Shown piece by piece: positions 12,123 through 40,867 of a stretch of DNA of 64,000 bases (position 1 is the first letter of the stretch; each line of letters opens with the position of its first letter). A model generated the notes under the pieces. It saw nothing but the letters and a program-made list of their open reading frames with translations, was not told the origin of the DNA and did not search any database. Source of the stretch: an uncultured Lachnospiraceae bacterium (lineage in GTDB: Bacteria; Bacillota; Clostridia; Christensenellales; UBA1242); assembly GCA_964368755.1 (NCBI GenBank), contig CAYJCR010000004.1:1886-65885 (forward strand), given 5' to 3'. A program made the position numbers and the translations under genes.

Positions 12123-13400
12123 ATGAAGAATAGATATACACAATGTTTGGATGCCTTGTCTAGTATTTATATTGATGGCAAGTATATCGCACAGGCAATT
12201 GAGCCATATATGTCGGACTCCAACGCATCGATTATTACCAAAGTTGTATATGGCGTTGTTGAGAACGATATTCAACTTGACTATATTATCAATCAATTAG
12301 TTAAGAAGGTCAAAGACATACCTGTACGTATAGTACTCAAGATAGGGGCATATTCTCTTGGTCATCTTGATAATATTCCTGACTATGCCATTGTTAACGA
12401 TTGTGTCAATCTAGTCAAAAGTGTTGGCTTCGGCTCAGCAAGTGGGCTAGTTAATGCCGTACTTAAGAAGATATCTACTAGGGCATACAATATGCCCAAA
12501 GTAGGCGACAAAGATTACCTTAGTGTTACATATAGCATTCCACAATGGTTGGTAGATAGGCTTGTCATTGATTATGGAGAGACAGTGGTATCTATATTAT
12601 CAAGTGATAAGATTCCTTCAACTGTGAGAGTGAATAGACTCAAATCAACTGATACGGAGTTCAGAAGTCTTATGGACAACAACAATATAAGATACTTGGA
12701 GACTGTTCTTCCGAATTGCTTTGCAGTAGATTACAAAGCCCTTAATAAGAACAAATCTATAAGAGCATTATGTGTACCACAAGGACTTAGTTCGATGCTA
12801 GTCATTGATAGTTTTGATTGTCAACCAGATATGATAGCATTGGATTGCTGTGCAGCCCCAGGTGGCAAGAGTATATATCTTGCTGAGAAGTTGACTAATG
12901 GTCATGTAGAGTCGTGGGATATACATCCACATAGGGTCAAGCTTATCGAAGATTATTCTAAGTCTGTTGGTGCAACCAATGTGATTGCCAAAGTTCAAGA
13001 TTCAACGATTGTCGATCCAACATTATTCGACAAGTTCGACCTTGTACTATGCGATGTGCCTTGTAGTGGTATTGGTACAATGTTGTCCAAACCTGACGTA
13101 TTGCTTAACCGCAAAGAAGAAGATATAGATAGCCTTAATGCCATTCAGTTCAAGATATTGGAAGTATGCTCACAGTATGTCAAAGAGGGTGGTCAACTCA
13201 TATACAGTACATGCAGTATTCTCAAAGATGAGAATGAGAGGATCGTAAGTAGATTTCTTGATGGCCACAAAGACTATGCAATTAGTCCAATCACCCTTCC
13301 TGTTGAGTCAATTGAGGGTATTGGCAACACATTGCTTCCAGATATAAGCAGAACTGATGGGTTCTATATAGCGAGGATAAATAGATGCAAGATACATTGA
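12123..13400 (+). CDS. rsmB: 16S rRNA (cytosine967-C5)-methyltransferase RsmB
   Basis: NusB-like N-terminal domain, SAM site DCCAAPGGKS, catalytic Cys motifs CDVPCSGIG and YSTCS. Confidence 0.9.
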   Translation: MKNRYTQCLDALSSIYIDGKYIAQAIEPYMSDSNASIITKVVYGVVENDIQLDYIINQLVKKVKDIPVRIVLKIGAYSLGHLDNIPDYAIVNDCVNLVKSVGFGSASGLVNAVLKKISTRAYNMPKVGDKDYLSVTYSIPQWLVDRLVIDYGETVVSILSSDKIPSTVRVNRLKSTDTEFRSLMDNNNIRYLETVLPNCFAVDYKALNKNKSIRALCVPQGLSSMLVIDSFDCQPDMIALDCCAAPGGKSIYLAEKLTNGHVESWDIHPHRVKLIEDYSKSVGATNVIAKVQDSTIVDPTLFDKFDLVLCDVPCSGIGTMLSKPDVLLNRKEEDIDSLNAIQFKILEVCSQYVKEGGQLIYSTCSILKDENERIVSRFLDGHKDYAISPITLPVESIEGIGNTLLPDISRTDGFYIARINRCKIH

Positions 13401-14416
13401 GTTTAACAAAACAAGAGTGGGAACAGTTCCTTATAGACAATGGTCAACCGAAGTATAGGGTTAAGCAGATTTTTGCTGAACTCCATCGTGGTAAGAAACT
13501 AAGTGAGATTACAACTCTCCCAAAGGCTTTTGTAGAGACCTGTTATAAGACTATGGAAGACACATCTCTTGAGATATATAAGAAGATTGAATCTAATGGT
13601 ACAACCAAGTTCCTTTACAAACTCGGCGATAATAACATTATCGAAGGCGTGCTTATGGACTACAAGCACGGTAAGTCACTATGTGTCTCTACTCAAGTCG
13701 GTTGTAGAATGGGTTGTGCATTTTGTGCCTCAGGTCTTGATGGATTGGTACGCAATTTGACGGCGGGTGAGATACTGGCGCAAGTCGTTCAAGTCAATAA
13801 ATATCTTGGTGGTGACGAAAAGAATCGCAAGGTCATCAACTTAGTTCTTATGGGAAGTGGAGAGCCGTTAGACAACTATGACAATACTACAAGATTCCTT
13901 ACCAATGTCAATGATCCAGATGGTATCAATATAAGTCAAAGAAATATATCGCTAAGCTCTTGTGGACTTGCAGATAAGATACGCAAACTTGCCGATGAAG
14001 GATATTCGGTCAACTTGAGTCTATCGCTACACGCTAGTACTGACGAAATACGTCGCAAGATTATGCCAATCTCTAGGGCATATACTATTCAAGAAGTAAT
14101 CGATGCGTGCAAGTACTATTTCGACAAAACAGGAAGAAGATTCATCATAGAATATACTATGATCAAAGGTATCAATGATAGCCTTGCCGATGCAGATAGA
14201 TTGTCGAGCATTCTCAAAGGTCTCACTTGTCACGTCAACGTTATCAACCTCAATCCTGTCAAAGAAAAAGATTTTAAGTCCTGTAACAAACACGAAGTAT
14301 ACGCATTTGTGAATAGACTTGAGGCTAATGGTACATCAGCATCAGCTAGAAGAACACTTGGCGATGATATAGAAGGGGCTTGTGGTCAACTAAGAAGGAA
14401 AGTTCTCTCCAAATAA
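13385..14416 (+). CDS. rlmN: 23S rRNA/tRNA (adenine-C2)-methyltransferase RlmN (radical SAM)
   Basis: GQPKYRVKQIF N-terminus, radical-SAM cluster CRMGCAFCASG, C-terminal GACGQL. 16 nt overlap with rsmB. Confidence 0.93.
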   Translation: MQDTLSLTKQEWEQFLIDNGQPKYRVKQIFAELHRGKKLSEITTLPKAFVETCYKTMEDTSLEIYKKIESNGTTKFLYKLGDNNIIEGVLMDYKHGKSLCVSTQVGCRMGCAFCASGLDGLVRNLTAGEILAQVVQVNKYLGGDEKNRKVINLVLMGSGEPLDNYDNTTRFLTNVNDPDGINISQRNISLSSCGLADKIRKLADEGYSVNLSLSLHASTDEIRRKIMPISRAYTIQEVIDACKYYFDKTGRRFIIEYTMIKGINDSLADADRLSSILKGLTCHVNVINLNPVKEKDFKSCNKHEVYAFVNRLEANGTSASARRTLGDDIEGACGQLRRKVLSK

Positions 14417-14465: not shown

Positions 14466-15359
14466 ATGGAAGGTCTAGTTATCAAGAACATATCCAATAT
14501 CTATACTGTTAATAGTAAGGGATGTTTTTTTGATTGCTTGGGTAGTGGTAAGGTCAAACAAGACGGTAAGATACTTGTTGGAGACAAAGTCATATTCGAT
14601 GACTTAGGGTCGGGCAAAGGCGTGATAACACAGGTCTGTGCGAGAGCAAATAGCTTCTGTAGACCACCTGTTGCCAATATCAAGAACTTACTTATTGTCA
14701 TATCTCCAATCCCAGAACCCGATTATTACCTAGTAGACAAGCTTGTTATATTCTGTCTTATCAATCGTATAAAACCTATAATTTGTGTTAATAAAGATGA
14801 TATTGTAACCGACGAGTTCAAAAGTAGTATTATCAGCCAGTACAAAGATGTTGTCAAGAATATTGTATTTGTAAGTGCAAAGACAAGGGCAGGATTGGAT
14901 AGCTTGTGTAAGTTGCTTAAGAATAAGATAACTTCACTTGTTGGGCAATCTGCTGTTGGCAAATCTTCTATAGCCAATGCACTTCTTGGTACAAGCATTA
15001 TAGTTGGCGATGTTTCGACTAAGACTGGTAGAGGTAAGCAAACTACAAGACATACCGAATTGTATGTCAATGGCGACATATTACTAATTGATACTGCAGG
15101 ATTTAGCAGTCTTGATATAGAACTTAGTTATGAGAATCTAGCCTTGCTTTATCCAGATATATCCAAGTATGTAGGCAGATGCAAGTACCATATGTGCTCA
15201 CATACCAACGAAGGCACAAAAGATTGTTTTGTCAAACAAATGGTTGCTTGTGGCAAGATAGACAAGAATAGATATGATAGATATGTCAAACTCTATCGTG
15301 AACTAAAAGATGGCAAACCTCAGAAGATAAATATGAAGAATGCGACAAGGAGGAAGTAA
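14466..15359 (+). CDS. rsgA: Ribosome small-subunit-dependent GTPase RsgA
   Basis: Circularly permuted GTPase with NKDD-like CVNKDD, G1 GQSAVGKSS, DTAGF, and C-terminal Zn knuckle CKYHMCSHTNEGTKDC. Confidence 0.9.
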   Translation: MEGLVIKNISNIYTVNSKGCFFDCLGSGKVKQDGKILVGDKVIFDDLGSGKGVITQVCARANSFCRPPVANIKNLLIVISPIPEPDYYLVDKLVIFCLINRIKPIICVNKDDIVTDEFKSSIISQYKDVVKNIVFVSAKTRAGLDSLCKLLKNKITSLVGQSAVGKSSIANALLGTSIIVGDVSTKTGRGKQTTRHTELYVNGDILLIDTAGFSSLDIELSYENLALLYPDISKYVGRCKYHMCSHTNEGTKDCFVKQMVACGKIDKNRYDRYVKLYRELKDGKPQKINMKNATRRK

Positions 15360-21383: not shown

Positions 21384-21448
21384 TTAATTGTTGTATTTTA
21401 TAGACTAAAAATAATTTTTGTTGTATGATAAATATCAGGAGTAAATAT

Positions 21449-21805
21449 ATGAACGAAGAATATCTTGGTAAGGTTGTCCATGTAGTCATGGATAGACCTA
21501 TGGGAACCAAACACCCAAAACACAATTATCACTATCCAGTAAACTATGGCTACATACCAGGTACTGTGTCGGGCGATGGAGAAGAATTAGATGTCTATCT
21601 TCTTGGGGTATACAAACCTGTTGAGAGTTATGATGGCAAAGTCCTTGCGATTATACATAGAACTGATGATAATGAAGATAAGCTTGTGGTCGCTCCTGAA
21701 GGGAAGAATTATACCGATGAGCAGATTATGGCGATTACTGAGTTTCAAGAGCAGTACTTTGAGAGTCAGATAATAAGATCTGATTCGTTGCCAAAACTTG
21801 ATTAA
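21449..21805 (+). CDS. Truncated family-I inorganic pyrophosphatase-like protein
   Basis: 118 aa from ATG 21449 (RBS AGGAG). YPVNYGYIPGTVSGDGEELDVYLLG aligns with the E. coli PPase core [23 protein letters not shown], and KLVVAP with KLVAVP. It lacks roughly the N-terminal third of a canonical PPase. Confidence 0.6.
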   Translation: MNEEYLGKVVHVVMDRPMGTKHPKHNYHYPVNYGYIPGTVSGDGEELDVYLLGVYKPVESYDGKVLAIIHRTDDNEDKLVVAPEGKNYTDEQIMAITEFQEQYFESQIIRSDSLPKLD

Positions 21806-22664: not shown

Positions 22665-22760
22665 TTAATTACAGCCTTTTGTAACTTTGCTACCACAATT
22701 TGAGCAGTTTCTGGTAGAAGTTTTTGCTTTTGCCGAGCTACTTGTTTGTTTGTTTCTCAT
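22665..22760 (-). CDS. Candidate 31-aa basic, Cys-containing small protein
   Basis: Minus-strand translation is MRNKQTSSSAKAKTSTRNCSNCGSKVTKGCN. Strong RBS GGAGGT lies 7 nt upstream, and the ORF ends just before the bidirectional terminator. Below the ORF-track length threshold. Confidence 0.4.
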   Translation of the reverse strand: MRNKQTSSSAKAKTSTRNCSNCGSKVTKGCN

Positions 22761-23074
22761 AGTATTACCTCCTTTGTGATTAGTTTTGCATATATTCAGC
22801 ACCTTATGCTTCACATTGAGTGGTAATAAATAACAATGGGATAATAATTAATATATAAAAAAATGTATTTATACAATACTTTTTGTAGTATATTCGTTTT
22901 ACAAAATATTATATTTATCGTATAATATACACATAGTATATTCATAGTGATAATATATACCAAAATATTATTTGCTATACAATCACTTATCCCATGGTTC
23001 ATCTATTGGCGCAACTTGTGTTGATCAGGGATGAATACAACTTACGACAAATAAATTATAAGGGAAGTAGTACC

Positions 23075-25108
23075 GTGAAGAAGAAGATTATAATTTTTTC
23101 ATCAATATTTGCAGTATTGATTGCTGGCATTACATGTTTGCTTGTATTTTTGTTGCCATCAAAAGGTGATGGAGATAATGGCAATAATAGTAGTGGTGGA
23201 GAAGTAATCGTAGATCCTGGGACAAAGCCAAATAATAACATTAAGTATGACGTGTATACTTCTGAGAATAAAGGATACTTTTTGAACCAAGTTGAAGATG
23301 TATTCAATGTTTCTCCAGAGACGCTATATCCTGGCTCAACTTCTTCTTGGAAAAAGAATTATTATAAGTCAAGTCTTGCTGGGCTTGTCAATGCATTTGA
23401 ACTTGCCGATGTTGATTTGGGGAAGTTTAAGAATCTTACAGATTTTATTGCAGAATATCCAACACTTATCGAAGACATCAACTTTAGTCTAAAAGGTATG
23501 ATAAATAGTGAGAATGTATCATTCTTGCAAGTAATGGAGATATTGTCAAGATTAGAGAATATCAACGGAATTTATCGTATTGTTACTGCATTCTACGATA
23601 CTGGCATAACAAATGAAGACATAGCCAATGTATTGTACTATTATATGCAGAATGAGTTGTCTCTACTTAATGAGTATAGACTAGACCTATATATGTCTCT
23701 TACTGAGTTCTATGATTCCCTTGGAGGATCTGTTAACTCGTTCTTGTATTCGACATTGTATGATATACTTCCTGCAATGTATTCAGGATTGCTTGATTCT
23801 GGCAAAGAAGAGTTTGTTGATATTACAATTGAAGTCCTTGATACAATCAATGTCTTTATGGAGATATACAAAGATTATAATTTCTACTCAATTGTCAATA
23901 TACTTACACTCATCAAGAATGGTGATCTTAAGCCTGAAGAATTGACTGTAATGACTCACGAGTTAGAGATTACAATTGATAGTATGATTGATAAAGAAAC
24001 TGGCAAAGCATTCAATATATCTAACAAAGTATTCACAATGGTATATTCTATTGCAAGCAAATTACCACTTGTACTCAATGTTGTATCTGAACTTGCAGGG
24101 TTGCCTAACATGACAGAAGTATTACCATATCTTGCGAACTCAATTAGTTCATCAGAAGAGTTCCTTAACCGTGCAGTGGTAGGACTAAAGAATGTTTTGT
24201 CTATGATTAACAATGAAGAGACAATATTTGTTAGAGATAGCGAAGGCAATGTAACAAAGAAGTTGTCTATGGCGCAAGCTTTATCAGAGCATTTGGCAAG
24301 TGTTGCTAGTGGAGAGAATGTTAATGCTAATAGCGATACGGTCATTCTTATTTCCAAAGTTTTGGCTCCAATGTTCAGAGACAACGCGTTGAACTCAACA
24401 TTCCTTAACAAGTTTATGACCGATGGCGGTGGAATATTTAGCTCAATGATAGGTCTTTTGGAAGCTTTTGGTTATCAGCCAGAAGAAGGACAAGAGATGA
24501 TAACTCGTACAGAGTTCGATAGCAATTATGCTACTTTCAAGGATGTCATAATATCCTTTGCTGACGTCATTACGATATATGCAAGTTATGACTTGGGAGT
24601 TTCTGAAGATGTGCTTATAGATATATCTCCATCGTATGTAATACTTGAGTCATACATCAGCAAATATCTAGTTGCTATTGTCAATGAAGATTTTGCATCG
24701 TTTGCGACATTGAGTTATCTATTAACAGTTGTTGTTGCGACTCCGTTACTCATAACAGCGACTCCATTGTTGTTGGCAGCAACTGTTGTTGCAGCCCCAA
24801 TATTTGCAGTATATAGTGCAGTTATTATCACTAAGGATTTTTCAGGAAGTGACGGGACAGCATCGTTTGGAACAGCGTTGACATCTGTATTTGCAGGTAT
24901 GTTTGGAAGAGCCAAAGATGAAGATGGCAACTATATTGCAGATAGTGAAGAGTTTGCACGACTCGGAGAGAGGTTATCTGAACAATTCGCAGGCATTATG
25001 CAAAGTTTAAGCTTGAAGAGGATTTTCCCAACGATAATCAATGCTTTTAGTGATACAGTTGAGAATGTCTTAGAGAAAATTATGTATTTTGAGTATGATA
25101 GAAGGTAA
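23075..25108 (+). CDS. Large membrane-anchored protein of unknown family, paralog 1 of 3
   Basis: Likely GTG start at 23075 (VKKKIIIFSSIFAVLIAGITCLLVFLL, an N-terminal TM anchor; RBS AGGGAAG); track start 22994 is possible but less likely. Long non-hydrophobic middle region, then a 45-aa hydrophobic block (LSYLLTVVVATPLLITATPLLLAATVVAAPIFAVYSAVII) and a 110-aa tail. Homologous over its full length to the next two genes. Confidence 0.75.
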   Translation: MKKKIIIFSSIFAVLIAGITCLLVFLLPSKGDGDNGNNSSGGEVIVDPGTKPNNNIKYDVYTSENKGYFLNQVEDVFNVSPETLYPGSTSSWKKNYYKSSLAGLVNAFELADVDLGKFKNLTDFIAEYPTLIEDINFSLKGMINSENVSFLQVMEILSRLENINGIYRIVTAFYDTGITNEDIANVLYYYMQNELSLLNEYRLDLYMSLTEFYDSLGGSVNSFLYSTLYDILPAMYSGLLDSGKEEFVDITIEVLDTINVFMEIYKDYNFYSIVNILTLIKNGDLKPEELTVMTHELEITIDSMIDKETGKAFNISNKVFTMVYSIASKLPLVLNVVSELAGLPNMTEVLPYLANSISSSEEFLNRAVVGLKNVLSMINNEETIFVRDSEGNVTKKLSMAQALSEHLASVASGENVNANSDTVILISKVLAPMFRDNALNSTFLNKFMTDGGGIFSSMIGLLEAFGYQPEEGQEMITRTEFDSNYATFKDVIISFADVITIYASYDLGVSEDVLIDISPSYVILESYISKYLVAIVNEDFASFATLSYLLTVVVATPLLITATPLLLAATVVAAPIFAVYSAVIITKDFSGSDGTASFGTALTSVFAGMFGRAKDEDGNYIADSEEFARLGERLSEQFAGIMQSLSLKRIFPTIINAFSDTVENVLEKIMYFEYDRR

Positions 25109-25119
25109 TTAACCTGCAG

Positions 25120-25152
25120 AGACCATCAGCAAGTAATATTGTATGGTGGTCT
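25120..25152 (+). other. Intercistronic hairpin without T-run (mRNA processing or stability element?)
   Basis: Stem AGACCATCA / TGGTGGTCT (9 bp, one G-U pair), 15-nt loop, between paralog 1 and paralog 2. Confidence 0.3.
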
Positions 25153-25178
25153 TACTGTAGTATAACAGAGGAAATTGT

Positions 25179-27296
25179 ATGGCAAACAAAAAAATAGTCG
25201 TATTATCTATAATAACACTACTATTATTCACGGCAGCACTTGCTATGGTGATTTTTCTTGCTATCAACAATTCAAAAAAAGACGATGATAACCCAGTTAT
25301 TGAGGATATAGTACAGTATTCTGATTACAACAAAGACAACAAAGATGTATTTGTCAAATGTATGGAGCAGTTGTTACAAATCAAATATTCTGACGATGAA
25401 ACTCAGTATAATGATGTATGGAAAGATGACTTGATCAAAGAAACATTTACTAACCTTGTTGATGCTTTTGAAACTGCAGAAATTGATATTGATGTTTTCT
25501 ATGAAGTATCAAAGTTTGTATATGATTTGCCCGAACAAATAAAAGGTATGTCATTTGATCTTGGAGAAGGAATAGAGAATACGACATTATCATTGGGTGA
25601 CCTTTACAATGTTTTTTCCAAAGTCAATAATATCAACAAAATCGTTGATTTGTACAACCGATTTTATGCGACGGGTTTAACTGATGATGATATTGCTCTT
25701 ATTCTTTGGCATTTTTGCCAAAGCGAAGCAGAAACATTATCAGAGAATGCATTATTCTTCAATCTTATGCTTAATGTAGATGTTGAGAATGAATATGGTA
25801 CATATGCAGAACTTGCAAAACTACTTATGATCGATGCAATACCATACATTCAACCGTTATTAGATAATATGGGCAAAGATAATTTCATTATTAATGTTAA
25901 GCAAATTCTTTCTCAGTTACGAGAGATTACAGTTGAGGTAAAATCTTATTCTGTTATTAGCTTTTCGCAAATAATTGTCGATATTATTGATGGAACCAGA
26001 GATTACAATGATCTGTTAGAGTATTCTAAGAGCATCAATACTTCGCTTAAGAATAGATTAGATGAAGACGGCAAATTTCTTGATTATTCAGGCATTTCTT
26101 ATCCGGTCCTTTCTATTATTACTAAGACTCCATTTTTGATAAGATTCTTGAATGAGCATATGCATTTTGGTGATGAATGGATAGCTTTTGGACTAGACAT
26201 CAATACATTTTTTACCTCATGTGTCAAAACTCTCAATTCTATCGAGGACCTTACCAACGCAGCAGTTAATGGTATTATCAATGTAACAGAGTATTTGTCT
26301 GAGAATAAATCTGTTCTTGTTAGAGATGAGACAGGTGTCATTGTTGATCAGATCAGTATAGTAGAGGCACTAGCAGACAATATGAGCAATGCTTTTGATG
26401 GTGAGTCATTCAATGCAAATGCAGATACGGTAGTTATTTTCTGTAAGATATTTGCTAAGATGTTCGATGGGGTAGGCTTGACATATGAAACGATTACCAC
26501 TCTTGGCAAAGAACTTGTCGAATCTTTTATGCTTGCTCTTGTTGCGTATAGTGCTGGTACTGACAGTGATATTGATGTCAACGATGAAGATGTTGGCAAT
26601 GCTGCTGGCAATTTAATAATATTTTTTAGAAGTGACTATATGGACGATTTGATGGATACAATATTTGATTATATTGGCGAGTCGATCGGTGTTATTACAG
26701 AGATATCTAAGCTTGACTTGGGTGCGAGTGAGAGAGATTTGTACGATATATCTAGTAATATTATGGTACTTAAAGATTCAATCAATATTACGTTGAATGC
26801 TTTATATAATGGTGAGTTTATCACGGCTGATCATGCAGCTACATGGGTTGCGACCTATGTGTTACAAAAATTCTTTGTTTCTCAATATGACTATTATCAA
26901 GACAATTGGAAAAGCGATGTAAAAACGATATTGGGAGAAGAGTTTAGCAAAATGTTAGGATTGCCAGCTGGTGCTTCTATGTTACTTCATGGGCTATCTA
27001 CGTTGACTATTGTGATTGATATGTCCAAATTGTTATTTGGTGTTGATCTTACAACATTCTCTGCCGATTCGATTATCAAAGAGGGTGATACTGAAGAGGC
27101 AATTAACTATAAACGACAAATTGCAAAATACGTACGTGAGATGGCAAATCTTGCAGATGATTTTGACAAATATATGATGTATGCAACGTGGCCAGTCACT
27201 GCATTATTTGAGAAAGTGTTCTTGACTAGCTGGAATACTTCAGTTCAAATACCAGAGTATATAACCAATATTTTCTATCCTGGACGAAAGAAATGA
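25179..27296 (+). CDS. Large membrane-anchored protein of unknown family, paralog 2 of 3
   Basis: MANKKIVVLSIITLLLFTAALAMVIFLAI forms an N-terminal TM anchor. 705 aa. Shares blocks with paralog 1 (e.g. FYATGLTDDDIALILWHF vs FYDTGITNEDIANVLYYY; VRDETGVIVDQISIVEALADNM vs VRDSEGNVTKKLSMAQALSEHL). Confidence 0.8.
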   Translation: MANKKIVVLSIITLLLFTAALAMVIFLAINNSKKDDDNPVIEDIVQYSDYNKDNKDVFVKCMEQLLQIKYSDDETQYNDVWKDDLIKETFTNLVDAFETAEIDIDVFYEVSKFVYDLPEQIKGMSFDLGEGIENTTLSLGDLYNVFSKVNNINKIVDLYNRFYATGLTDDDIALILWHFCQSEAETLSENALFFNLMLNVDVENEYGTYAELAKLLMIDAIPYIQPLLDNMGKDNFIINVKQILSQLREITVEVKSYSVISFSQIIVDIIDGTRDYNDLLEYSKSINTSLKNRLDEDGKFLDYSGISYPVLSIITKTPFLIRFLNEHMHFGDEWIAFGLDINTFFTSCVKTLNSIEDLTNAAVNGIINVTEYLSENKSVLVRDETGVIVDQISIVEALADNMSNAFDGESFNANADTVVIFCKIFAKMFDGVGLTYETITTLGKELVESFMLALVAYSAGTDSDIDVNDEDVGNAAGNLIIFFRSDYMDDLMDTIFDYIGESIGVITEISKLDLGASERDLYDISSNIMVLKDSINITLNALYNGEFITADHAATWVATYVLQKFFVSQYDYYQDNWKSDVKTILGEEFSKMLGLPAGASMLLHGLSTLTIVIDMSKLLFGVDLTTFSADSIIKEGDTEEAINYKRQIAKYVREMANLADDFDKYMMYATWPVTALFEKVFLTSWNTSVQIPEYITNIFYPGRKK

Positions 27297-27369
27297 TAAC
27301 TCAACTATTGTACAATTGCTTAATTTTGTAATAAAACAGTTAAATTAGTATAAAAGACAAGTATTTTGT

Positions 27370-27398
27370 TTTACATTTGGATATAAAATAAGTATAAT
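27370..27398 (+). promoter_or_regulatory. Sigma-A type promoter for paralog 3
   Basis: TTTACA (27370-27375), 17 nt spacer, TATAAT (27393-27398). Confidence 0.5.
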
Positions 27399-27496
27399 AA
27401 TATCATACTAGATATATAATAGATCTCTGTATGCGAAGGATGTGTATTATTCGCTTACATAGGAAGTAATTGAAAATACAAAAAGAGGAAATGAAT

Positions 27497-29968
27497 ATGG
27501 CAGAAACTACAAAAACAAAAAAGCCAACTACAAGCAAAGCAACAACAAAAACTGTTGCAAAGCCTGCTGCAAAGGCAACTGTTACGAAGAAAGTCGCTAC
27601 TTCAACTAAAGCAAAAGCTCCTGTGAAGAAGACTGTATCGTCGTCAGTATCAAGAACAACAGTTAAGACTGTAGCAAAGGCAAAGTCAACTTCAGTTAAG
27701 CCAAGAGCAACTACAAAGAGAGTAGTTAAACCTTCAATTGCACCTGTACAAGCAGTTGAGGATTTTGGCGCACAAGACGTTGTCTCTACAGCAAATGTGG
27801 AAGCCCCTGTATCTTCAGTTGCTCCTGATGTAGTAGAAGTTGCACCAGTTGAAGTAACTCCTGTTCCAGCAAATACAGTATTGTATGAAGCTCCAATAGA
27901 GAATCCAAATGTCATTGAATCAACACAAGTTGAACATAACACTATTAAGGCGCAAGATGTCAAAGTTAAGACACATAACAAATCTGGCATTATGAACAAA
28001 CTTGTATGGGCTATGCTTGTCGTAGCACTATGCTTATTCATTGCAGCTGCAACTTTACTCATTATTACCGTAGTCAAAGACAAGAAGGATGATAACCAAG
28101 GTGGTGGTAGTTCTTCTATTGTAGATACGGGATCAAGTGGTGGAACTGATGATCCAGTTGAACCCATTACATACACTTCAGAACTTAAGTCAACAATAGG
28201 TTCTGCATTCAACTCATTGTTTGATGTCAACACTTCATCTCTTGATGATAAAGATGTTCTCAAAAAGCAACTTATAGGAGTTCTTCCATCAGCATTAGAG
28301 TATGCACAAGTTCCAATTGCTGTTGCAGAAGATATAGTAGAGTTCCTTCCAACGATCACAACAACACTTGATAGCATCAATGTTGATTGGGACAAATTAT
28401 TGGGCTTTGAGGGAGAACAGCAAATAGCAGACTTCCTTGATGAAATAATTAAAGCGAAAGATTATGAGAAGATCCTCAAACTTGTACAAGATTTCTTCAA
28501 GACAGGTATTACTACTGATCAAGCTTCAAAGATGCTATATAAAGTTATTTCTTCTCAATCTTCAGTTATAATTGACAATTCCTATATGTTATCTCAAGCA
28601 TTACTTGATATGCAAGAGAGAACAGAAGATGCAGGTGATGTCGCATCAAGTATGCAATATCTTGTACTTGGTTTGATATTTGATATCGCTCCAGGAGCTG
28701 TTCAATCATTCATTGATAATGCAGATAACGAGGCGATTATCGAGAACACACTCAAAGAATTGTGTGATTTCGTACAAGGATTTGCTAATGCTTACTTTGA
28801 TAGTGGAATCTCAGAGTTCCTTGAACTTATCGAAGGTGTTATCAAAGGCGAAGTCAATGGCGAAGCATTAAAAGATGCTGCTGACAAAGTATACAAAGCT
28901 ATTGATAGCTTAAAAGATAAAGAATCTGGCAAATATATTGAGATAAGCAATAAGTTCAAAGCAAAGATTAACAGTTCGATTTTGTATATCAATTCTTTGG
29001 TACAAATTGCTTCCAACGCTATGAGCGATGAGCAAAAAGAGATAGTTAATTATTACGTAGGTATCTTTAACAAATTCTTGAAGAGTATCAATTCTGTAGA
29101 TACATTCTTCAATGGTGCTATAGATTTCGTTGCTAAGTTCTTCCAAGGTTTCACTAAAGAAATAAATATCATTGTTGTAGGTGGGCAAACTGAAAAAACA
29201 ACTGTTGCAGAAGCCTTTGCAAATAACTTAACTAATCCAGATGTAAGAATAGTTGATCCATCAGATGAATCTAGTTATTATTTCCAACCTAACCTTGATA
29301 CAATCATTATATTGTCTAATTTACTAGAAGGTTCGTTGACTCAAGCAAAAGCTACTTTCTCTGAATCATTCTTCAATACTATTATATCATTAACAACCGT
29401 TATACCAGGTAGCGATGAAAACATGATCGAGCAGGTTAATGCAATGATTGACAACACTCAAATGATTTTGAATCTCGTAGCTACATTTAGTAAGAAGATT
29501 ATAAATATTCCATTGGGTGCAGATATTAATGATCCAGAATATGCACAGTATCTATCTTGCCAGATTGTTGTCAAAGAGATGGTAGATCATGATGAAGATC
29601 CATCAACTCCAGATGTTGAACAAGAATTTGAGATTACGATGTCTTATGAGACTTTTGAGACAATAATCGAAGATTATTTGAACTCAATACTTGCATCAGC
29701 ATTGCCAGCAGGAACTGGATCTATTAAAGATATAATAATTGTTCCAACTGCATTCATTATGGTTGCTGCTATGACTCCATCTACTGTAGTCCTATATGCA
29801 GTAACTCAACCAATAATATTGTTACTCAACAACTATGCAGGACTTGAGTTAGATGCTGGAGTATTTGATATCCAGAATATGCTTGAGAACTATTATGCTA
29901 AGTATAGTACAGTTATCAGCGATTGGCTTGATGATATGCTAGAAGGCACAACAAGACAAGCAGGTTAA
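27497..29968 (+). CDS. Large membrane protein of unknown family, paralog 3 of 3, with Lys/Thr/Ala/Val-rich N-terminal extension
   Basis: Start chosen at ATG 27497 (MAETTKTKKPTT...) for better spacing from AGAGGA. About 180 aa of basic low-complexity sequence precede the TM helix LVWAMLVVALCLFIAAATLLIITVV. The remainder is homologous to paralogs 1 and 2 (FFKTGITTDQASKMLYKV; DKESGKYIEISNKFK). Confidence 0.8.
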   Translation: MAETTKTKKPTTSKATTKTVAKPAAKATVTKKVATSTKAKAPVKKTVSSSVSRTTVKTVAKAKSTSVKPRATTKRVVKPSIAPVQAVEDFGAQDVVSTANVEAPVSSVAPDVVEVAPVEVTPVPANTVLYEAPIENPNVIESTQVEHNTIKAQDVKVKTHNKSGIMNKLVWAMLVVALCLFIAAATLLIITVVKDKKDDNQGGGSSSIVDTGSSGGTDDPVEPITYTSELKSTIGSAFNSLFDVNTSSLDDKDVLKKQLIGVLPSALEYAQVPIAVAEDIVEFLPTITTTLDSINVDWDKLLGFEGEQQIADFLDEIIKAKDYEKILKLVQDFFKTGITTDQASKMLYKVISSQSSVIIDNSYMLSQALLDMQERTEDAGDVASSMQYLVLGLIFDIAPGAVQSFIDNADNEAIIENTLKELCDFVQGFANAYFDSGISEFLELIEGVIKGEVNGEALKDAADKVYKAIDSLKDKESGKYIEISNKFKAKINSSILYINSLVQIASNAMSDEQKEIVNYYVGIFNKFLKSINSVDTFFNGAIDFVAKFFQGFTKEINIIVVGGQTEKTTVAEAFANNLTNPDVRIVDPSDESSYYFQPNLDTIIILSNLLEGSLTQAKATFSESFFNTIISLTTVIPGSDENMIEQVNAMIDNTQMILNLVATFSKKIINIPLGADINDPEYAQYLSCQIVVKEMVDHDEDPSTPDVEQEFEITMSYETFETIIEDYLNSILASALPAGTGSIKDIIIVPTAFIMVAAMTPSTVVLYAVTQPIILLLNNYAGLELDAGVFDIQNMLENYYAKYSTVISDWLDDMLEGTTRQAG

Positions 29969-29989: not shown

Positions 29990-30019
29990 TTGGGGCATTG
30001 ATTTAATGCCCCAAATTTT
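29990..30019 (+). terminator. Strong hairpin with short T-tract (terminator or attenuator between paralog 3 and the ABC genes)
   Basis: 10-bp stem TTGGGGCATT / AATGCCCCAA, 5-nt loop, then ATTTTA. Confidence 0.55.
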
Positions 30020-30035: not shown

Positions 30036-30728
30036 ATGGGAGTAGTACTTAGTTGCAACAAACTTGTTAAAGATTTCTTAGTAGCGGGCAAGCAAACGCG
30101 TGTTATTAATGGTATTTCTTGTGAATTTAACGAAGGTGAGTTTGTATCTATCATGGGCCCAAGTGGTAGTGGTAAGAGCACATTTCTTTATCTACTCAGT
30201 GGTATTGAGCGCAAGACAAGTGGTAGCGTACAGATCCTTGGTAAAGAGATTGATTCATACTCTAACAAGGATATAAGTAAGCTTCGTTCGACTGATATTA
30301 GTTTTGTATTCCAAGCGTATAACCTTATCACTAACTTTACAGTATACGAGAATGTCATTACACCACTTCTTATAAGCAAACGCAAGATTGTCGAAAGTGA
30401 AGTTGATAATGTATTGCAAAGTGTTGGACTTCTTAAGTACAAACATAGTGCAGTTACAATGCTATCTGGTGGAGAACAGCAGAGAGTTGCTATTGCAAGA
30501 GCTCTAATTACAAGACCAAAGATATTGTTTGCCGATGAAGCAACAGGTAACCTTGATAGTAAGACTGTTGTATCTGTAATGAAATTGTTGCAAAAAATCA
30601 ATGAAGTTACGCATATTACGATAATACAAGTAACACACTCAGAGCAATGTGCCTTGTATGGACATAGGACTATTAGACTTCTAGATGGCAATATAGTTAA
30701 GGATGAAAAAGTAACAAAGAGATTGTAG
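30036..30728 (+). CDS. ABC transporter ATP-binding protein, MacB/LolD/FtsE-like
   Basis: Walker A GPSGSGKST, Q-loop, signature LSGGEQQRVAIARAL, Walker B ILFADEATGNLD, H-loop VTHS. Confidence 0.93.
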   Translation: MGVVLSCNKLVKDFLVAGKQTRVINGISCEFNEGEFVSIMGPSGSGKSTFLYLLSGIERKTSGSVQILGKEIDSYSNKDISKLRSTDISFVFQAYNLITNFTVYENVITPLLISKRKIVESEVDNVLQSVGLLKYKHSAVTMLSGGEQQRVAIARALITRPKILFADEATGNLDSKTVVSVMKLLQKINEVTHITIIQVTHSEQCALYGHRTIRLLDGNIVKDEKVTKRL

Positions 30729-30748
30729 GATATACATATAGGACAAAT

Positions 30749-33280
30749 ATGAGAATAATACTAAAGTTTGCCAAATCTAATATAAAAAATGCCAAAGCTA
30801 AAGTAATAGTTTTGGTTCTTTGTGTTGCAATAAGCTGTTTCATATTTGCGGCATCCATATGCGTACCAATGTTTATCAGGCAATACAATGTAGATCTCGC
30901 ACGTTCGTTTTATGGCGACTCTGATGCTTATATGGCACCAGAAGACTTCGGGACACAAAGGTATTCTTCGATGTCATATGTGCCACAAGAGACCAAAGAC
31001 AAATGCGAATATATATATACAATGTTTGCATATCAAGATTATGTAACAATGAATGATGAAAATCTTCTTTATAATATTATTGGCGTTAACTATGATGAGC
31101 TTATGAACTTCAATAATACTATTAAGTTGAACACAAAATTGACTTCACTTGGCGAACTCGAAATAATAATAAGCGAGAAGATGGCGAAGAAGTATAACTT
31201 GTCGACAGGTAGCATTGTCAAATTGTCTACCTACAAGTATTCTGCCAAAGTTGTTGCCGTAGCTAAGCCAACAGGATACTTCACTGATGGACAGAATATT
31301 TTTACCTCTAAGCAAACTTTGATAAAACTTATGAAAGCAAGTGGAGCATCTTTGCTCACCAAAGCTAATAAGGATACAATATTTAACTTAGCTGTTATGA
31401 AGTTTAAACCAGATATTGATGCCGACCAGACTAGGGACGAGTTTGACGATTACCTAAAAAATATTTCTGTTACACAAACTGTTGATGAAGAAGCAATACA
31501 AGGATATATCGACTTTATTATTGGACCATTCTTGTTTGTTGCTAGCATAGTAATGGTGTTCTGTGTATTTATAATACTCCTTATATGTAATATCATATTC
31601 ACTGAGAGGCTTAAAGAGTTTGCTACTCTCAAATCACTTGGCGCAACCAATGGGCATCTAGTGGGAAGCTTGGTTCTTGAGAGTGGAACATACGGTGGCG
31701 TAGGTGGAGTGTTTGGTGCATTATTTGTATTCCTACTAGAAGTAATATTACAACATATTGGTATGACATATATCAGAGGCATACCTGTATTGTACTTTGT
31801 TTACTTTGTATTGTTTGGCGTTGGATTTAGTATTATAAGTGCTCTTATACCAGCTATAATACATAGTAGAAAAAGTATTAGACAGACAATGATATTATCC
31901 TCGAAGAGTAAGTTATTTAACTACATTTGGAGCATTGGTGGCGCTACACTTGGAGTATTTGCTGTTATATCGGCAATACTAGTTGATCCAATGGAAAGAA
32001 ATATTTTCCCTATACTTACCATTGCTTGTGCTTTGCTTTCGATCATAATGTTATCGCCATATATTATATATGGAATAGTTCAATTATTCTATATTGTGTT
32101 TAGAAAAGTTGGTGGCTTTGCTTCGGTTTATGTCAAAAATAATACTTTAACATCTTCGGTATCGATGATGATAAGACTTACGACATTTGGATTGGCTATA
32201 TTTTTGTTGCTTAATATATTGCCATCACTTGTAAAAACAGCCGTTAACTCTGAGGTGTCAAGAACGGTGTATGATATTCAACTAAGATACGTAGACGATG
32301 ACAAAGATGCAATAGTTGATTATCTTAATGGAATAGATGAAGTATCATATGTATATAAGACATATGATAGTAGAAGTGAAAAAGAATACAGTTATGATTT
32401 TGATATCAATAAACTATGTGGTTTTACATATGATACTATTGTAACAGCTTATGGCAATACAATAGTAGGCAACAAAGAAGAAGTGCTCAACAAACTAAAA
32501 GATGAAGAGCATCCATACATTCTTGTTGGTCAACAATTCGCAATATTTAACGATCTTGAAATCGGAGATATCGTAAGCTTTGATATTACAATTGACGAAG
32601 ATGCCGAAGATAAAGAAGATCGTGTCTCAAGAACGTCATTTGTTATAGCTGGATTTACAAATGCTATGCAACAAGTTAATAGTATAATGGTGTTTAATGT
32701 CGAGTATATAAATAAAGCATACAACAAAGAGTTGTCTAATGCCATAGAAGTCAAACTTAAGTCTATGAATGATTACCAGAAAGTATATGATGCGATTAAA
32801 TCCAATCCACTATGTGCTTCTGCAGATATTTACAACGTTACTGGCAAGACTAATGATCTAATTTTTGCTCTAGATGGAGCATTCTTGATAGTTAATGGAT
32901 ATTCATATATGGTTATGGGACTAAGTTTTATTGCAATAGCGATAGCTATGATATTGTCACTTAAGAACAATATTCAACAGCATAAAATAATGTCGTTGCT
33001 CGGTATGAGTAAAAAAATGTATTTACGTAACTTTTTCTTCCTAATGCTTTGTATTATCCTTATTGGAGCACCTTTGGGTATAGCTTGTACGGCTATTGTA
33101 TTTGGTCTACTTACCAATGCTCTAGTATTCTTTGGGGCATATCTACTGTTTACTATGAGTTATGTGAGGTTATTTGTTTCTTGTGCTATAGCTATGGTTC
33201 TGTTGATGGTGATAAGTATGTGGATTGCCAACTCGGGTTACAAAGATTTTGTTCCAAAAATGATAGTAGAAGAAGGATAA
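30749..33280 (+). CDS. ABC transporter permease with two FtsX-type modules (MacB superfamily)
   Basis: 843 aa. TM1 is followed by a soluble domain of about 200 aa, then a TM cluster (residues about 265-500). A second soluble domain of about 200 aa and a C-terminal 3-TM FtsX-like cluster follow. KEFATLKSLGATNGHL is a typical FtsX-domain motif. Confidence 0.85.
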   Translation: MRIILKFAKSNIKNAKAKVIVLVLCVAISCFIFAASICVPMFIRQYNVDLARSFYGDSDAYMAPEDFGTQRYSSMSYVPQETKDKCEYIYTMFAYQDYVTMNDENLLYNIIGVNYDELMNFNNTIKLNTKLTSLGELEIIISEKMAKKYNLSTGSIVKLSTYKYSAKVVAVAKPTGYFTDGQNIFTSKQTLIKLMKASGASLLTKANKDTIFNLAVMKFKPDIDADQTRDEFDDYLKNISVTQTVDEEAIQGYIDFIIGPFLFVASIVMVFCVFIILLICNIIFTERLKEFATLKSLGATNGHLVGSLVLESGTYGGVGGVFGALFVFLLEVILQHIGMTYIRGIPVLYFVYFVLFGVGFSIISALIPAIIHSRKSIRQTMILSSKSKLFNYIWSIGGATLGVFAVISAILVDPMERNIFPILTIACALLSIIMLSPYIIYGIVQLFYIVFRKVGGFASVYVKNNTLTSSVSMMIRLTTFGLAIFLLLNILPSLVKTAVNSEVSRTVYDIQLRYVDDDKDAIVDYLNGIDEVSYVYKTYDSRSEKEYSYDFDINKLCGFTYDTIVTAYGNTIVGNKEEVLNKLKDEEHPYILVGQQFAIFNDLEIGDIVSFDITIDEDAEDKEDRVSRTSFVIAGFTNAMQQVNSIMVFNVEYINKAYNKELSNAIEVKLKSMNDYQKVYDAIKSNPLCASADIYNVTGKTNDLIFALDGAFLIVNGYSYMVMGLSFIAIAIAMILSLKNNIQQHKIMSLLGMSKKMYLRNFFFLMLCIILIGAPLGIACTAIVFGLLTNALVFFGAYLLFTMSYVRLFVSCAIAMVLLMVISMWIANSGYKDFVPKMIVEEG

Positions 33281-33369: not shown

Positions 33370-34137
33370 ATGTGGGATTTTTGTTTGGTAATACCTAGAG
33401 AATATGGCAGAATAGCATATATAATCAAAGATATTGTTAAGGCGAACGCAAGGCAAGCTTATGTGCAGACAATCGTTGAGGAAGAATATACTTACAGATA
33501 TATTCTCTCTATGCAATTATCTGACAAGAGCTTAATATATCCGTTGATATTTGATTGTATTGTTAGCAGTTCTGTTTGGTATTACAAGAAAAGCTATATT
33601 ATTAACAATCTCAAATATGACTTTGGCAATGGGCTCAAAGAACAAGCATTTTTGAAAGCGTTATTTTGCTTTGACTTGCATATAGATGTTGAAGAAGTTT
33701 CCAAAAAAATGCGTGGGGATACTTTGTATGTTGATTCTGTATATAAGTTTGGACTTAAAAATTTGACTCGCAGATGGAAAGAACTAGTAAGCCTCGCAAA
33801 TGACAATTATTTCTATGTCAAAAATGATGATTCTTTTCTTCAACTCTTGAAGTTCCTTATAAGCAATATTGACTATAGAACAAGTATCGTGAATGTATAT
33901 AAGACTAACAATCGATATACGTTCCATGATAACAACAACAAAGTTATTGATGATTATTTGCTTGATTTTCCTAATGACAAGATTAACTTTTTGATTAACT
34001 CGCTTATTATTCTTAACCCGCAGATAATAGTTTTGCATTTTGATACAGATGATTATGAAGAAAAAACCATTCTTTTAGATTTGTTTGAAGATCGCATAAA
34101 GAGTAATTATAAATGTGTTGACAACAAAATTAACTAG
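33370..34137 (+). CDS. Hypothetical protein, possibly YtxC-like
   Basis: 255 aa directly upstream of thrS, the position ytxC holds in B. subtilis. The segment DDSFLQLLKFLISNIDYRTSIVNVY resembles my recollection of the YtxC F..LLkyFv...ep...vhv block. No other motif. Confidence 0.4.
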   Translation: MWDFCLVIPREYGRIAYIIKDIVKANARQAYVQTIVEEEYTYRYILSMQLSDKSLIYPLIFDCIVSSSVWYYKKSYIINNLKYDFGNGLKEQAFLKALFCFDLHIDVEEVSKKMRGDTLYVDSVYKFGLKNLTRRWKELVSLANDNYFYVKNDDSFLQLLKFLISNIDYRTSIVNVYKTNNRYTFHDNNNKVIDDYLLDFPNDKINFLINSLIILNPQIIVLHFDTDDYEEKTILLDLFEDRIKSNYKCVDNKIN

Positions 34138-34149: not shown

Positions 34150-34384
34150 AACATAATACATGATGCATTAGCAGACAAGTAGGCACAGAGAGTTGTTCAC
34201 AGAGAGTATGAGATTGGTGTGACTCATATAGCAATACTGTTAACCGAAACCACTGTTATTCATGCGAGGGAGAATGCGTTAGTTTCTTTACAAACGAGTG
34301 GTTGAGGATTATTCCTCAATAACAAAGGTGGAACCGCGGAATAGTTATTTCGTCCTTTGACTGATTAGTCATAGGATTTTTTTA
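34150..34384 (+). ncRNA. T-box riboswitch leader (threonine specificity)
   Basis: Stem I AGAGAG elements (34187-34206). Candidate specifier GAA-ACC-A (ACC at 34249-34251; second ACC at 34243-34245). Conserved T-box AAAGGTGGAACCGCGG (34324-34339). Terminator TCCTTTGACT / AGTCATAGGA (34353-34376) plus T-run. Confidence 0.85.
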
Positions 34385-39241: not shown

Positions 39242-39292
39242 CTACTAGTCAAGAGGCTAGTAGCCAAACACAGATTTGTTCTGTGTTTTTTT
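39242..39292. terminator. Back-to-back convergent terminators (yebC on +, orphan operon on -)
   Basis: Hairpin 1 is CTACTAG / CTAGTAG preceded by A8, which reads as a T-run on the minus strand. Hairpin 2 is AACACAG / CTGTGTT followed by T7 on the plus strand. Confidence 0.7.
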
Positions 39293-39842
39293 ATTGTTCT
39301 TCAGCAGGGAAGTAGAATGATACATTATTCTCATCAAGTGGGTATGGATAGATGGTGTCTCTGAGTGAAGTATTCCTTACATTCTTTCTAAGGTATGGAG
39401 AAGCTTCTTCAAGAGTTTTGTACTCACAATCTTCACCTAAGAATCCACAACCATTGAGTTCATTAGAAGTTTTGTTAGCTGCTTCAATCAGTTTTTGCTC
39501 AATTATTTTGAGTTCTTCGTGAGAATATATAACATTATTCTCATTTGGGTTTCTTTTGTAAATCTGATAGATTGATTGTAGAATCTTCTCATCTTCGATT
39601 CTCTGTTGTTTGATATCATTTTCTCCATTGATTTTTGCTTGTTGTGCGCGATATTGTTTAAGATTCTCCGCAATGATATCTTTTGAATACAATTCCCAGG
39701 AGTTCTCTGGTTGATGTGTTGATGGGTCAGTATATTCTTCGAGATACATGAACATATTACTCAACGAACCTTTATAATACTCATCTGGTACTTCACCAAA
39801 CATTTCTATCAAACATCTTTCAAAATATGACAACTCGTCCAT
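39291..39842 (-). CDS. Hypothetical acidic protein (183 aa), second gene of orphan minus-strand operon
   Basis: RBS AGGAGAAAG lies 5 nt upstream, 11 nt after the stop of the upstream gene. No TM segment and no motif I recognise (MDELSYFERCLIEMFGEVPDEYYKG...). Confidence 0.7.
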   Translation of the reverse strand: MDELSYFERCLIEMFGEVPDEYYKGSLSNMFMYLEEYTDPSTHQPENSWELYSKDIIAENLKQYRAQQAKINGENDIKQQRIEDEKILQSIYQIYKRNPNENNVIYSHEELKIIEQKLIEAANKTSNELNGCGFLGEDCEYKTLEEASPYLRKNVRNTSLRDTIYPYPLDENNVSFYFPAEEQ

Positions 39843-39853
39843 AATTCTTTCTC

Positions 39854-40867
39854 CTATTCTTCATCTTGTGCAATCGCTTTATCAAAGTGATCATCAGTTT
39901 TGTCTACGGCGTATTTGAGACTGACATCTTCGATAGAAGATTCGTCTTCACAACCACTAGCTTGGAATATTTGTATAGCCTGTTTCATAGCTGATTTGTA
40001 ATCCCCGAACTTTGTTCTATCAGGATCTAAAGGAAGCTGGCCTCTGATTGAAAGTAATTGGTTGGTGCAAGTAACATAATTCTTCATTACATCTGGTATC
40101 TCGGCTTTAACTCCATCTATTGTGTACAAAGCCTCTTTGTTCTGTTTGTATTCGTTCAAAGCCTCAATATAAGTATCGTTGTTTGCTTCGATGTCTTCGT
40201 TAACAATAGCGATTGCAGATATTGTCTCGTCAAGTAGGTAGGTATCTTTGTCATCAAGTTCGCTTGCAAGGCCGGTGACTTTGCCGAATGTTGATTGTCC
40301 ATTCTTGTATGATAGCAAAGTGTCTTGGATAGCACCCAAAGCTTCGATTGCAGAGATGTCAGATGTTCTCATCAATTCTGCTTGCTTGTCAAATAATCTG
40401 ATTACTTCTATCTTAAATGGAGAAAATTCAAATCTCGTGTTAAATAGTGGTGTTACAAATCTATCTCTAACAATGTGCACTGTACTAGGAGTTTTTGTTA
40501 CATCACACATAGCGTGATTGGATGAACTTAATTGTAGATATAGACTTTTTGTCTCCTTCTCAGCGATATTCAAAAGTCTTGTAAGAGTCTTATCTGTTGA
40601 TGACAAACTAATCGGAGTAATTGTCTTCTTGTAATAGTCTTTGATTATATTCTTTGATTGTTCAATCTGATATTTGATTGTTGATAATGTCAAGTACTTC
40701 GATGATGTTGTCTGTTGTATTGCATTCTTTCGATAATTAATAATCTGAGTTATCAAATCTTTTTTCTTAGTTGTGATCTGTGTAGGTACGAGGCCGTCGT
40801 ATGGGTCGGAGGAGGTGCCGCTATCCTCACTACTGCTATTTGTCCACCAATAATTATTCGAGCTCAT
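39854..40867 (-). CDS. Hypothetical acidic protein (337 aa), first gene of orphan minus-strand operon
   Basis: RBS GGAGGT lies 6 nt upstream of the ATG and a near-consensus promoter lies upstream. Ser-rich N-terminus (MSSNNYWWTNSSSEDSGTSSDPYDG), no TM segment, no recognisable catalytic motif. Confidence 0.7.
   Translation of the reverse strand: MSSNNYWWTNSSSEDSGTSSDPYDGLVPTQITTKKKDLITQIINYRKNAIQQTTSSKYLTLSTIKYQIEQSKNIIKDYYKKTITPISLSSTDKTLTRLLNIAEKETKSLYLQLSSSNHAMCDVTKTPSTVHIVRDRFVTPLFNTRFEFSPFKIEVIRLFDKQAELMRTSDISAIEALGAIQDTLLSYKNGQSTFGKVTGLASELDDKDTYLLDETISAIAIVNEDIEANNDTYIEALNEYKQNKEALYTIDGVKAEIPDVMKNYVTCTNQLLSIRGQLPLDPDRTKFGDYKSAMKQAIQIFQASGCEDESSIEDVSLKYAVDKTDDHFDKAIAQDEE

Follow-up and report, generated by a model that had tools for sequence, protein, structure and literature searches.

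In a 64-kb stretch of DNA from an uncultured Lachnospiraceae bacterium (contig CAYJCR010000004.1), three consecutive genes on the + strand encode an undescribed family of proteins, without relatives that are detectable by sequence or by predicted fold. We will refer to the whole stretch of 64,000 nucleotides as the window and to the genes as W1 (23075-25108; 677 amino acids, from a GTG start), W2 (25179-27296; 705 amino acids), and W3 (27497-29968; 823 amino acids, from an ATG start). We propose that they represent a lineage-specific family of cell-surface membrane proteins, each with an ectodomain of about 480 amino acids that is acidic and all-helical, held in the membrane by an N-in signal anchor. 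Downstream of W3 are the genes for a predicted type VII ABC (ATP-binding cassette) transporter. Our preferred explanation, to which we assign a probability of roughly 40%, is that the family members are new extracytoplasmic partners of this transporter.

The three genes are real and old paralogs, and the homology between them is far above chance. Using BLASTP, W1 is 26% identical to W2 over 568 amino acids (E = 3e-41) and 24% identical to W3 over 453 amino acids (E = 7e-20), while W2 and W3 are 22% identical over 473 amino acids (E = 2e-9). This agrees with the original prediction, which described three homologous open reading frames in tandem on one strand; all of the peptide blocks that it quoted are present in the translations. 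At the DNA level, we found no repeats or other similarity among W1, W2, and W3, which implies that the paralogs have been retained for a long time. We rejected a recent amplification or recombination of the paralogs for the same reason.

The start codons of two of the genes have support. The GTG of W1 is preceded by a Shine-Dalgarno-like sequence (AAGGGAAG), and the N-termini of the homologs all fit this start; the alternative ATG at 22994, which would give a longer open reading frame, lacks a ribosome-binding site. AAGAGGA lies ahead of the ATG of W3 at 27497. There is also an antisense open reading frame of 330 amino acids (27403-28395, - strand) that overlaps W3 in its 5' part, where the sequence is of low complexity. 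Most likely, this is not a gene but a side effect of the skewed codon composition of that region.

We compared the three proteins to databases of known families and folds. None of them matched Pfam or NCBIfam (E ≤ 0.1-1), the matches to PHROGs were all insignificant, and no PADLOC model matched the family. When each of the 13 aligned members was scanned separately against Pfam and NCBIfam with a permissive threshold (E ≤ 10), no family was matched by more than one member. Against the sequences in PDB, W1 alone had no match, and a profile built from the 13 sequences had a best E value of 0.19. A tblastn search with W1 found no match in collections of phages and plasmids. We also considered the structure that AlphaFold2 predicts for W1. 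Confidence grew with the depth of the alignment, from a pLDDT of 51 with 4 sequences to a pLDDT of 59 and a pTM of 0.62 with 13 sequences. In the resulting model, the ectodomain (residues ~60-540), most of which has pLDDT values of 65-90, is built from some 25 helices and a single beta hairpin (383-398). Foldseek searches found no match in PDB (best E = 0.18-0.31, TM ≤ 0.15) or in BFVD (best E = 0.037, TM = 0.08). Together, these searches bear out the earlier description of the proteins as belonging to no recognizable family, and the alternatives that were named at the time (YhgE/Pip, EsaA, or known adhesins) were not matched by profile or by structure.

By hydropathy, each of W1, W2, and W3 has one strong hydrophobic helix near its N-terminus. 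W1 begins with an N-in signal anchor (~4-27) and a linker of Gly, Ser, Asn, and Asp, followed by the acidic, all-helical ectodomain (~60-540), a proline-containing hydrophobic block (540-589) with room for two transmembrane (TM) helices, and a tail of about 90 amino acids. W2 has a similar anchor and ectodomain, and its C-terminal hydrophobic block is degenerate and falls below the threshold. W3 has an additional N-terminal tail of 165 amino acids, which is rich in K, T, A, V, and P and has a net charge of +13. After this come a TM helix (~166-190) and the homologous ectodomain, and the protein ends with a weakly hydrophobic segment (741-770) and a short tail. Given the positive-inside rule, the basic tail of W3 is predicted to be cytoplasmic; it is probably disordered. 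The three proteins contain 1, 4, and 3 cysteines, respectively, and have isoelectric points of 4.2-4.5. Thus, the predicted architecture of an N-terminal TM helix, a Cys-poor helical ectodomain of about 500 amino acids, and a C-terminal block that is strong in W1 and weaker or below the threshold in the others was confirmed. So was the absence of lipobox and cell-wall-anchor motifs: a regular-expression scan of 15 members found neither [LVI][ASTVI][GAS]C near the N-terminus nor a C-terminal LPXTG. Also, comparing segments of the ectodomain to each other with hhalign did not identify any internal repeats.

Across the alignment of 13 members, only Tyr61, Gly177, and Gly283 are invariant, and Ala111, Thr179, Gly370, and Ala402 are nearly so. 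There are no conserved His, Cys, Ser, Asp, or Glu residues in this alignment, so these proteins are unlikely to be enzymes. That just three residues are invariant among the 13 sequences argues for a structural or binding role.

To find more members of the family, we used HMMER to compare a family profile exhaustively to 1.84 billion cluster representatives. This identified 12 proteins, all with E ≤ 1e-10. W2 and W3 are among the 12, and the others come from metagenomes, on five or six contigs (from Logan, ENA, and one metagenome-assembled genome, or MAG, at NCBI). A word-indexed homolog search with W1, and also with alignments, had returned only W1 itself and one ortholog, so it was the exhaustive search that revealed the family. 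In a pattern scan of 185,579 GTDB species genomes for the transporter's permease, we found one locus (L007), from a MAG labelled "uncultured Clostridia bacterium"; this locus also carries two family genes. A pattern scan of the GTDB genomes with the family alignment found nothing, and neither did a scan of JGI metagenomes with the permease alignment. The relatives have G+C contents of 28-36%.

The order of the genes is conserved. In the window, it is a TMEM164-like gene, W1, W2, W3, the ATPase and the permease of the transporter, ytxC, and thrS. L004 has P0007, P0009, and P0013, followed by the ATPase, the permease, ytxC, and thrS, and L007 has genes for family proteins of 657 and 525 amino acids followed by the same four genes. 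L005 has the TMEM164-like gene, P0008, P0012, the ATPase, and the permease. In L002, a P0012-like gene precedes the ATPase, the permease, ytxC, and thrS, and another family gene, P0010, lies farther along, next to yebC. Finally, L001 has the TMEM164-like gene and three family genes, and then the contig ends. The triplet in L001 is intact and is 1:1:1 orthologous to W1, W2, and W3, at 50%, 31%, and 35% identity, respectively. So the homologs occur in arrays with conserved neighbors, rather than singly and without them.

The original prediction placed the three genes in a synteny break and described the locus as AT-richer than the core. The locus is not a recent insertion: the relatives keep the order of TMEM164, array, transporter, ytxC, and thrS. 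The triplet is marginally AT-richer than the window as a whole (G+C of 0.349 versus 0.366), but it is about the same as the transporter genes (0.343) and is less AT-rich than add (0.319) or ytxC (0.306). Because the difference in G+C is marginal and the locus is syntenic in relatives, we rejected the idea of a genomic island.

From a neighbor-joining tree of the family members, we distinguished four types. Type A includes W1 and most of the other members, and all of these have a C-terminal hydrophobic block of 45-70 amino acids, with room for 2-3 helices. We propose that this block anchors the protein in the membrane a second time, near its C-terminus. The sister of type A is type B (W2 and the W2 ortholog from L001), whose block is degenerate. 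Type C consists of W3, its ortholog from L001, and P0013. Type C' (P0012 and L007_2) is shorter, at about 520 amino acids, and lacks the C-terminal part. The family gene that adjoins the ATPase is always of type C or C'. In L004, the two A-type genes are each other's closest relatives, which implies that type A was duplicated more than once.

Copy number varies, even within a species. L002 and L007 are 97% identical at the DNA level across 10 kb, so they are from the same species. In L002, the A-type gene P0010 (10001-11941) sits between yebC and the next gene. In L007 (~13020-13100), this gene has been lost: its first ~66 nucleotides are joined to its last ~14 nucleotides at a TTCAA microhomology. 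This implies that at least this paralog is dispensable and that copy number varies between strains. Across the loci, the number of family genes is 2, 3, or 2+1, and the duplications of type A look lineage-specific. The conserved unit is therefore not a retained triplet, as had been suggested, but at least one A-type gene, one C-type gene, and the transporter. Given the variable copy number and the strain-level deletion, an obligate hetero-trimer is unlikely.

The architecture and the turnover of these proteins bring to mind YhgE/Pip, YueB, and EsaA, which include phage receptors and parts of secretion apparatuses, and the family could consist of their distant functional analogues or relatives. 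The type A proteins share the gross plan, in which a long helical ectodomain lies between an N-terminal TM helix and further TM helices at the C-terminus, and fast evolution and the dispensability that is implied by the strain-level loss of a paralog would also fit. However, the ectodomain of the family is shorter, and in place of a C-terminal bundle of about five TM helices, type A has a single hydrophobic block with room for about 2-3, while types B, C, and C' have a weak block or none at all. None of the 13 members that we scanned at E ≤ 10 matched YhgE/Pip or EsaA in Pfam or NCBIfam, and PDB had no match by sequence or by fold. Also, EssC, EsxA, and other type VII secretion genes are absent from the annotated open reading frames of the window; the neighbors to which Pfam gave an annotation are housekeeping genes and the ABC transporter. 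We consider this relationship to be very unlikely.

We now turn to the transporter. The ATPase (30036-30728, + strand) is of the LolD/MacB/BceA/FtsE/YtrE type (ABC_tran, E = 2e-35), and its best matches among PDB sequences are LolD (5e-46), BceA (8e-43), and YtrE (6e-41), followed by MacB and FtsE. The permease (30749-33280, + strand; 843 amino acids) is a duplicated FtsX-type protein (FtsX, E = 1.3e-18). It has a MacB-like periplasmic core (53-234), an FtsX domain (263-376), and a second FtsX domain at the C-terminus. The hits to ABC_tran and FtsX pass Pfam's cut-offs, while MacB_PCD, at 24.2 bits (E = 4.6e-5), is just under its cut-off of 27 bits. The permease's sole match among PDB sequences is a weak one, to YtrF (E = 8e-5). 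Its N-terminus and its FtsX segments are highly conserved; the region around 500-715 is poorly conserved and is a putative second extracytoplasmic domain. Judging from these matches, the ATPase and the permease form a type VII (MacB/FtsX/LolCDE-like) ABC transporter. In this class, ATP is used to move extracytoplasmic domains, which perform mechanical work on partner proteins (PMC5985334, PMC6705773, PMC7828314). In all five of the loci that extend to this point (the window, L002, L004, L005, and L007), the ATPase's immediate upstream neighbor on the same strand is a C-type gene. The family has no kinship to the permease.

The transcription signals also connect the C-type gene to the transporter. 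There are near-consensus promoters of the sigma-70 type, TTTACA-17-TATAAT, upstream of W1 (22898-22926, + strand; 11/12 matches) and upstream of W3 (27370-27398, + strand). Sites that match TT[TG]ACA-N16-18-TATAAT are rare: the + strand of the window has only three, at 22898, 27370, and 34118. The same TTTACA-17-TATAAT is found ahead of the C-type gene in the window, L001, L004, L005, and L007, and in each of these loci it is the only such match or nearly so. The gene that precedes the C-type gene is followed, in several loci, by a hairpin with a T tract. Between the C-type gene and the ATPase, L002, L005, and L007 have just 30 nucleotides, which contain a ribosome-binding site and neither a hairpin nor a promoter. 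In the window and in L004, this gap is 67-69 nucleotides long and is occupied by a G+C-rich hairpin whose T tract is poor; again, there is no promoter consensus. The hairpin in the window (29990-30014, + strand) has a stem of 11 base pairs and an imperfect T tract, and it is probably a partial terminator or an attenuator. The simplest reading is that the C-type gene and the transporter would form one transcription unit; in the two lineages with an attenuating hairpin, the transporter would then be expressed at a lower level than the C-type protein. The operon-like spacing and the conserved promoter strengthen the link between the array and the transporter that the original prediction suggested.

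Four contigs from four sequencing runs (L008-L011) contain W3 at 100% identity, and all of them end at 27401-27417. These ends are 81-97 nucleotides upstream of the start of W3, within the very AT-rich spacer between W2 and W3. We considered an invertible promoter upstream of W3 and dropped the idea, because we did not find convincing flanking inverted repeats. In their absence, the breaks are probably due to loss of coverage in the AT-rich spacer.

The two strains of the same species also allowed us to estimate selection. Between L002 and L007, the ratio of nonsynonymous to synonymous polymorphism (pN/pS) is lowest for the ATPase (0.02), with values of 0.12 for the C' gene and 0.14 for the permease. 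The C' gene is under ordinary purifying selection, as is the permease. This bears on whether the genes are decaying or spurious open reading frames, that is, functionless remnants of amplification. The loss of the C-terminal hydrophobic block in types B and C, and the deletion of an A-type copy in one strain, could be seen as signs of decay. But the three reading frames are intact (677-823 amino acids), the orthologous triplet in L001 is equally intact at 31-50% identity, ribosome-binding sites and promoter signals are in place, and the paralogs have been kept long enough to lose any similarity at the DNA level. Given this conservation and the low pN/pS, decay or an artifact is effectively refuted.

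If the proteins are partners of the transporter, they might work as follows. We propose that the family comprises two functional classes, A/B and C. The A/B-type genes, present in one or two copies, would be transcribed from their own strong promoter, and the single C-type gene would head a transcription unit that runs on into the transporter. The ectodomains would attach to the duplicated FtsX permease at its extracytoplasmic domains, and the hydrolysis of ATP in the cytoplasm would be passed on mechanically to a helical assembly outside the membrane, much as FtsEX drives PcsB, CwlO, or EnvC, or as MacB drives MacA. The likely task would be in the envelope, either the removal or expulsion of an amphipathic or lipid-linked compound or the remodelling of the surface. 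The paralogy, the topology signals, the restriction of the family, the gene order, the pattern of promoters and spacing, and the purifying selection are observed; that the proteins touch the permease, that mechanotransmission takes place, and what the assembly does in the envelope are inferred.

The rates of divergence fit with a partnership. Relative to the window's proteins, the ATPases of the relatives are 78-82% identical, and ThrS (75%), InfC (69%), TMEM164-like (54%), and YtxC (46%) are less conserved. The permease is just 35-38% identical, which is similar to the 22-50% identity of the family proteins. On the other hand, several observations count against a partnership. The main weakness is that all of the known members belong to a single narrow clade in which synteny is conserved between TMEM164 and thrS, so the adjacency to the transporter could be inherited rather than functional. 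Also, a terminator-like hairpin separates the C-type gene from the ATPase in 2 of 5 loci; P0010 is about 5 kb from the transporter and was deleted in a near-identical strain; and our structural model is only moderately confident (pLDDT 59, pTM 0.62).

The main alternative is that the family members are independent, abundant, and fast-evolving surface proteins, such as a coat, an adhesin, or a target of recognition by phages or hosts, that are next to the transporter only because of inherited synteny. The acidic helical ectodomain would be displayed on the cell, and the gain and loss of paralogs would reflect diversifying pressure. The very fast divergence of the family (22-50% identity, versus 75-82% for ThrS and the ATPase), the variable copy number with lineage-specific duplications, and the clean deletion of one paralog in a strain with 97% DNA identity are all consistent with this. 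So are the strong near-consensus promoters that W1 and W3 have for themselves, the hairpin behind W3, and the lack of conserved residues that might hint at catalysis. However, the promoterless gap of 30 nucleotides between the C' gene and the ATPase in three loci implies that they are cotranscribed. There are no adhesin-type repeats, wall anchors, or lipoboxes, and a pN/pS of 0.12 indicates that selection between strains is purifying, not diversifying, at least for the C' gene. We view independent surface proteins as possible but somewhat unlikely.

Returning to a partnership with the transporter, we speculate that the permease's two extracytoplasmic domains match the two classes of proteins in number. 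In its most specific form, the proposal would be of a machine made of two classes of strongly expressed helical proteins on the two different extracytoplasmic domains of a fused double-FtsX permease, with a doubly-anchored A protein and a C protein with a basic tail; this would be an ATP-driven mechanotransmission complex with a new fold, from an uncultured lineage of Clostridia. We consider this specific form to be doubtful.

How would this compare to known systems? FtsEX, which acts on PcsB, CwlO, EnvC, or RipC (with SweC and SweD as cofactors), is also a type VII transporter that acts on helix-rich partners outside the membrane, and the genes for those partners often adjoin the transporter genes, as they would here. 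But the partners of FtsEX either contain a peptidoglycan hydrolase domain (CHAP, NlpC/P60, or LytM) or regulate one, and according to Pfam, no member of our family has such a domain. Unlike the partners of FtsEX, the family proteins are themselves anchored in the membrane (at both ends, for type A), and there is no similarity in sequence or fold. Also, the FtsX of FtsEX has 4 TM helices, while the permease in the window is a fused double FtsX of 843 amino acids.

MacAB and the MacB-like pumps of Gram-positive bacteria that use a membrane-fusion-protein adaptor, such as YknXYZ, share the gene order of adaptor, ATPase, and FtsX/MacB permease, and their permease has MacB_PCD. Their adaptor is anchored by a TM helix at its N-terminus and is helical in part outside the cytoplasm, which is reminiscent of the family. 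However, the family lacks the lipoyl, beta-barrel, and alpha-hairpin domains of HlyD, MacA, and YknX. It has no match to the HlyD family in Pfam or by Foldseek, and the model is all-alpha except for one hairpin. In contrast to MacAB, the family has two classes and a variable copy number. BceAB and YtrEF of Firmicutes have a similar ATPase and a permease with extra TM helices and large extracytoplasmic domains. But neither has partners like this family, there is no two-component system among the annotated neighbors of the window's transporter, and the match of the permease to YtrF is weak.

Each of the partner classes EnvC, PcsB, CwlO, MacA, and BceS revealed a new function in the envelope. This locus is a candidate for a new partner class; the permease next to it, a fused double FtsX, is unusual, and the lineage of low-GC Clostridia that carries it is uncultured and poorly known. 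A true link to the transporter would widen the range of what type VII transporters drive and would add a new helical fold; without such a link, this is still a clean case of a lineage-specific, strongly expressed, and rapidly evolving surface family with gain and loss at the level of strains. Since the family is so narrowly distributed (12 of 1.84 billion representatives), its practical impact is limited.

Downstream of the transporter, the third promoter in the window, at 34118, is a perfect TTGACA-17-TATAAT and precedes the T-box leader of thrS (34163-34360, + strand). This T-box scored 85 bits, versus Rfam's gathering score of 93, and was the only riboswitch or leader RNA that Rfam identified in the locus. 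Farther along, two - strand genes (39291-40867; 183 and 337 amino acids) lie between yebC and ruvC and have no match in Pfam or PADLOC. L002 and L007 have genes at the equivalent position. According to hhalign, the two genes in the window, including the one at 39854-40867, are unrelated to the family.

The backbone of the window consists of housekeeping genes of the Clostridia type: priA-def-fmt-rsmB-rlmN-rsgA-rpe, fakA, ruvABC-queA-tgt-yajC-secDF, pnp, and ftsK. In many Firmicutes, a PP2C phosphatase and a PASTA kinase are encoded between rlmN and rsgA. In the window, rlmN (13385-14416) is followed directly by rsgA (14466-15359), and the pair is absent, which may be a sign of a reduced genome. 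An open reading frame of 126 amino acids (21425-21805) matches part of inorganic pyrophosphatase (positions 30-112 of 153 in the profile) and may be truncated. Between the TMEM164-like gene and W1, there is an open reading frame of 31 codons on the - strand (22667-22762), MRNKQTSSSAKAKTSTRNCSNCGSKVTKGCN, with a strong ribosome-binding site (AAAGGAGG). L001 (1061-1168) and L004 (4681-4791) also have small, basic open reading frames here on the - strand, but the sequences are dissimilar.

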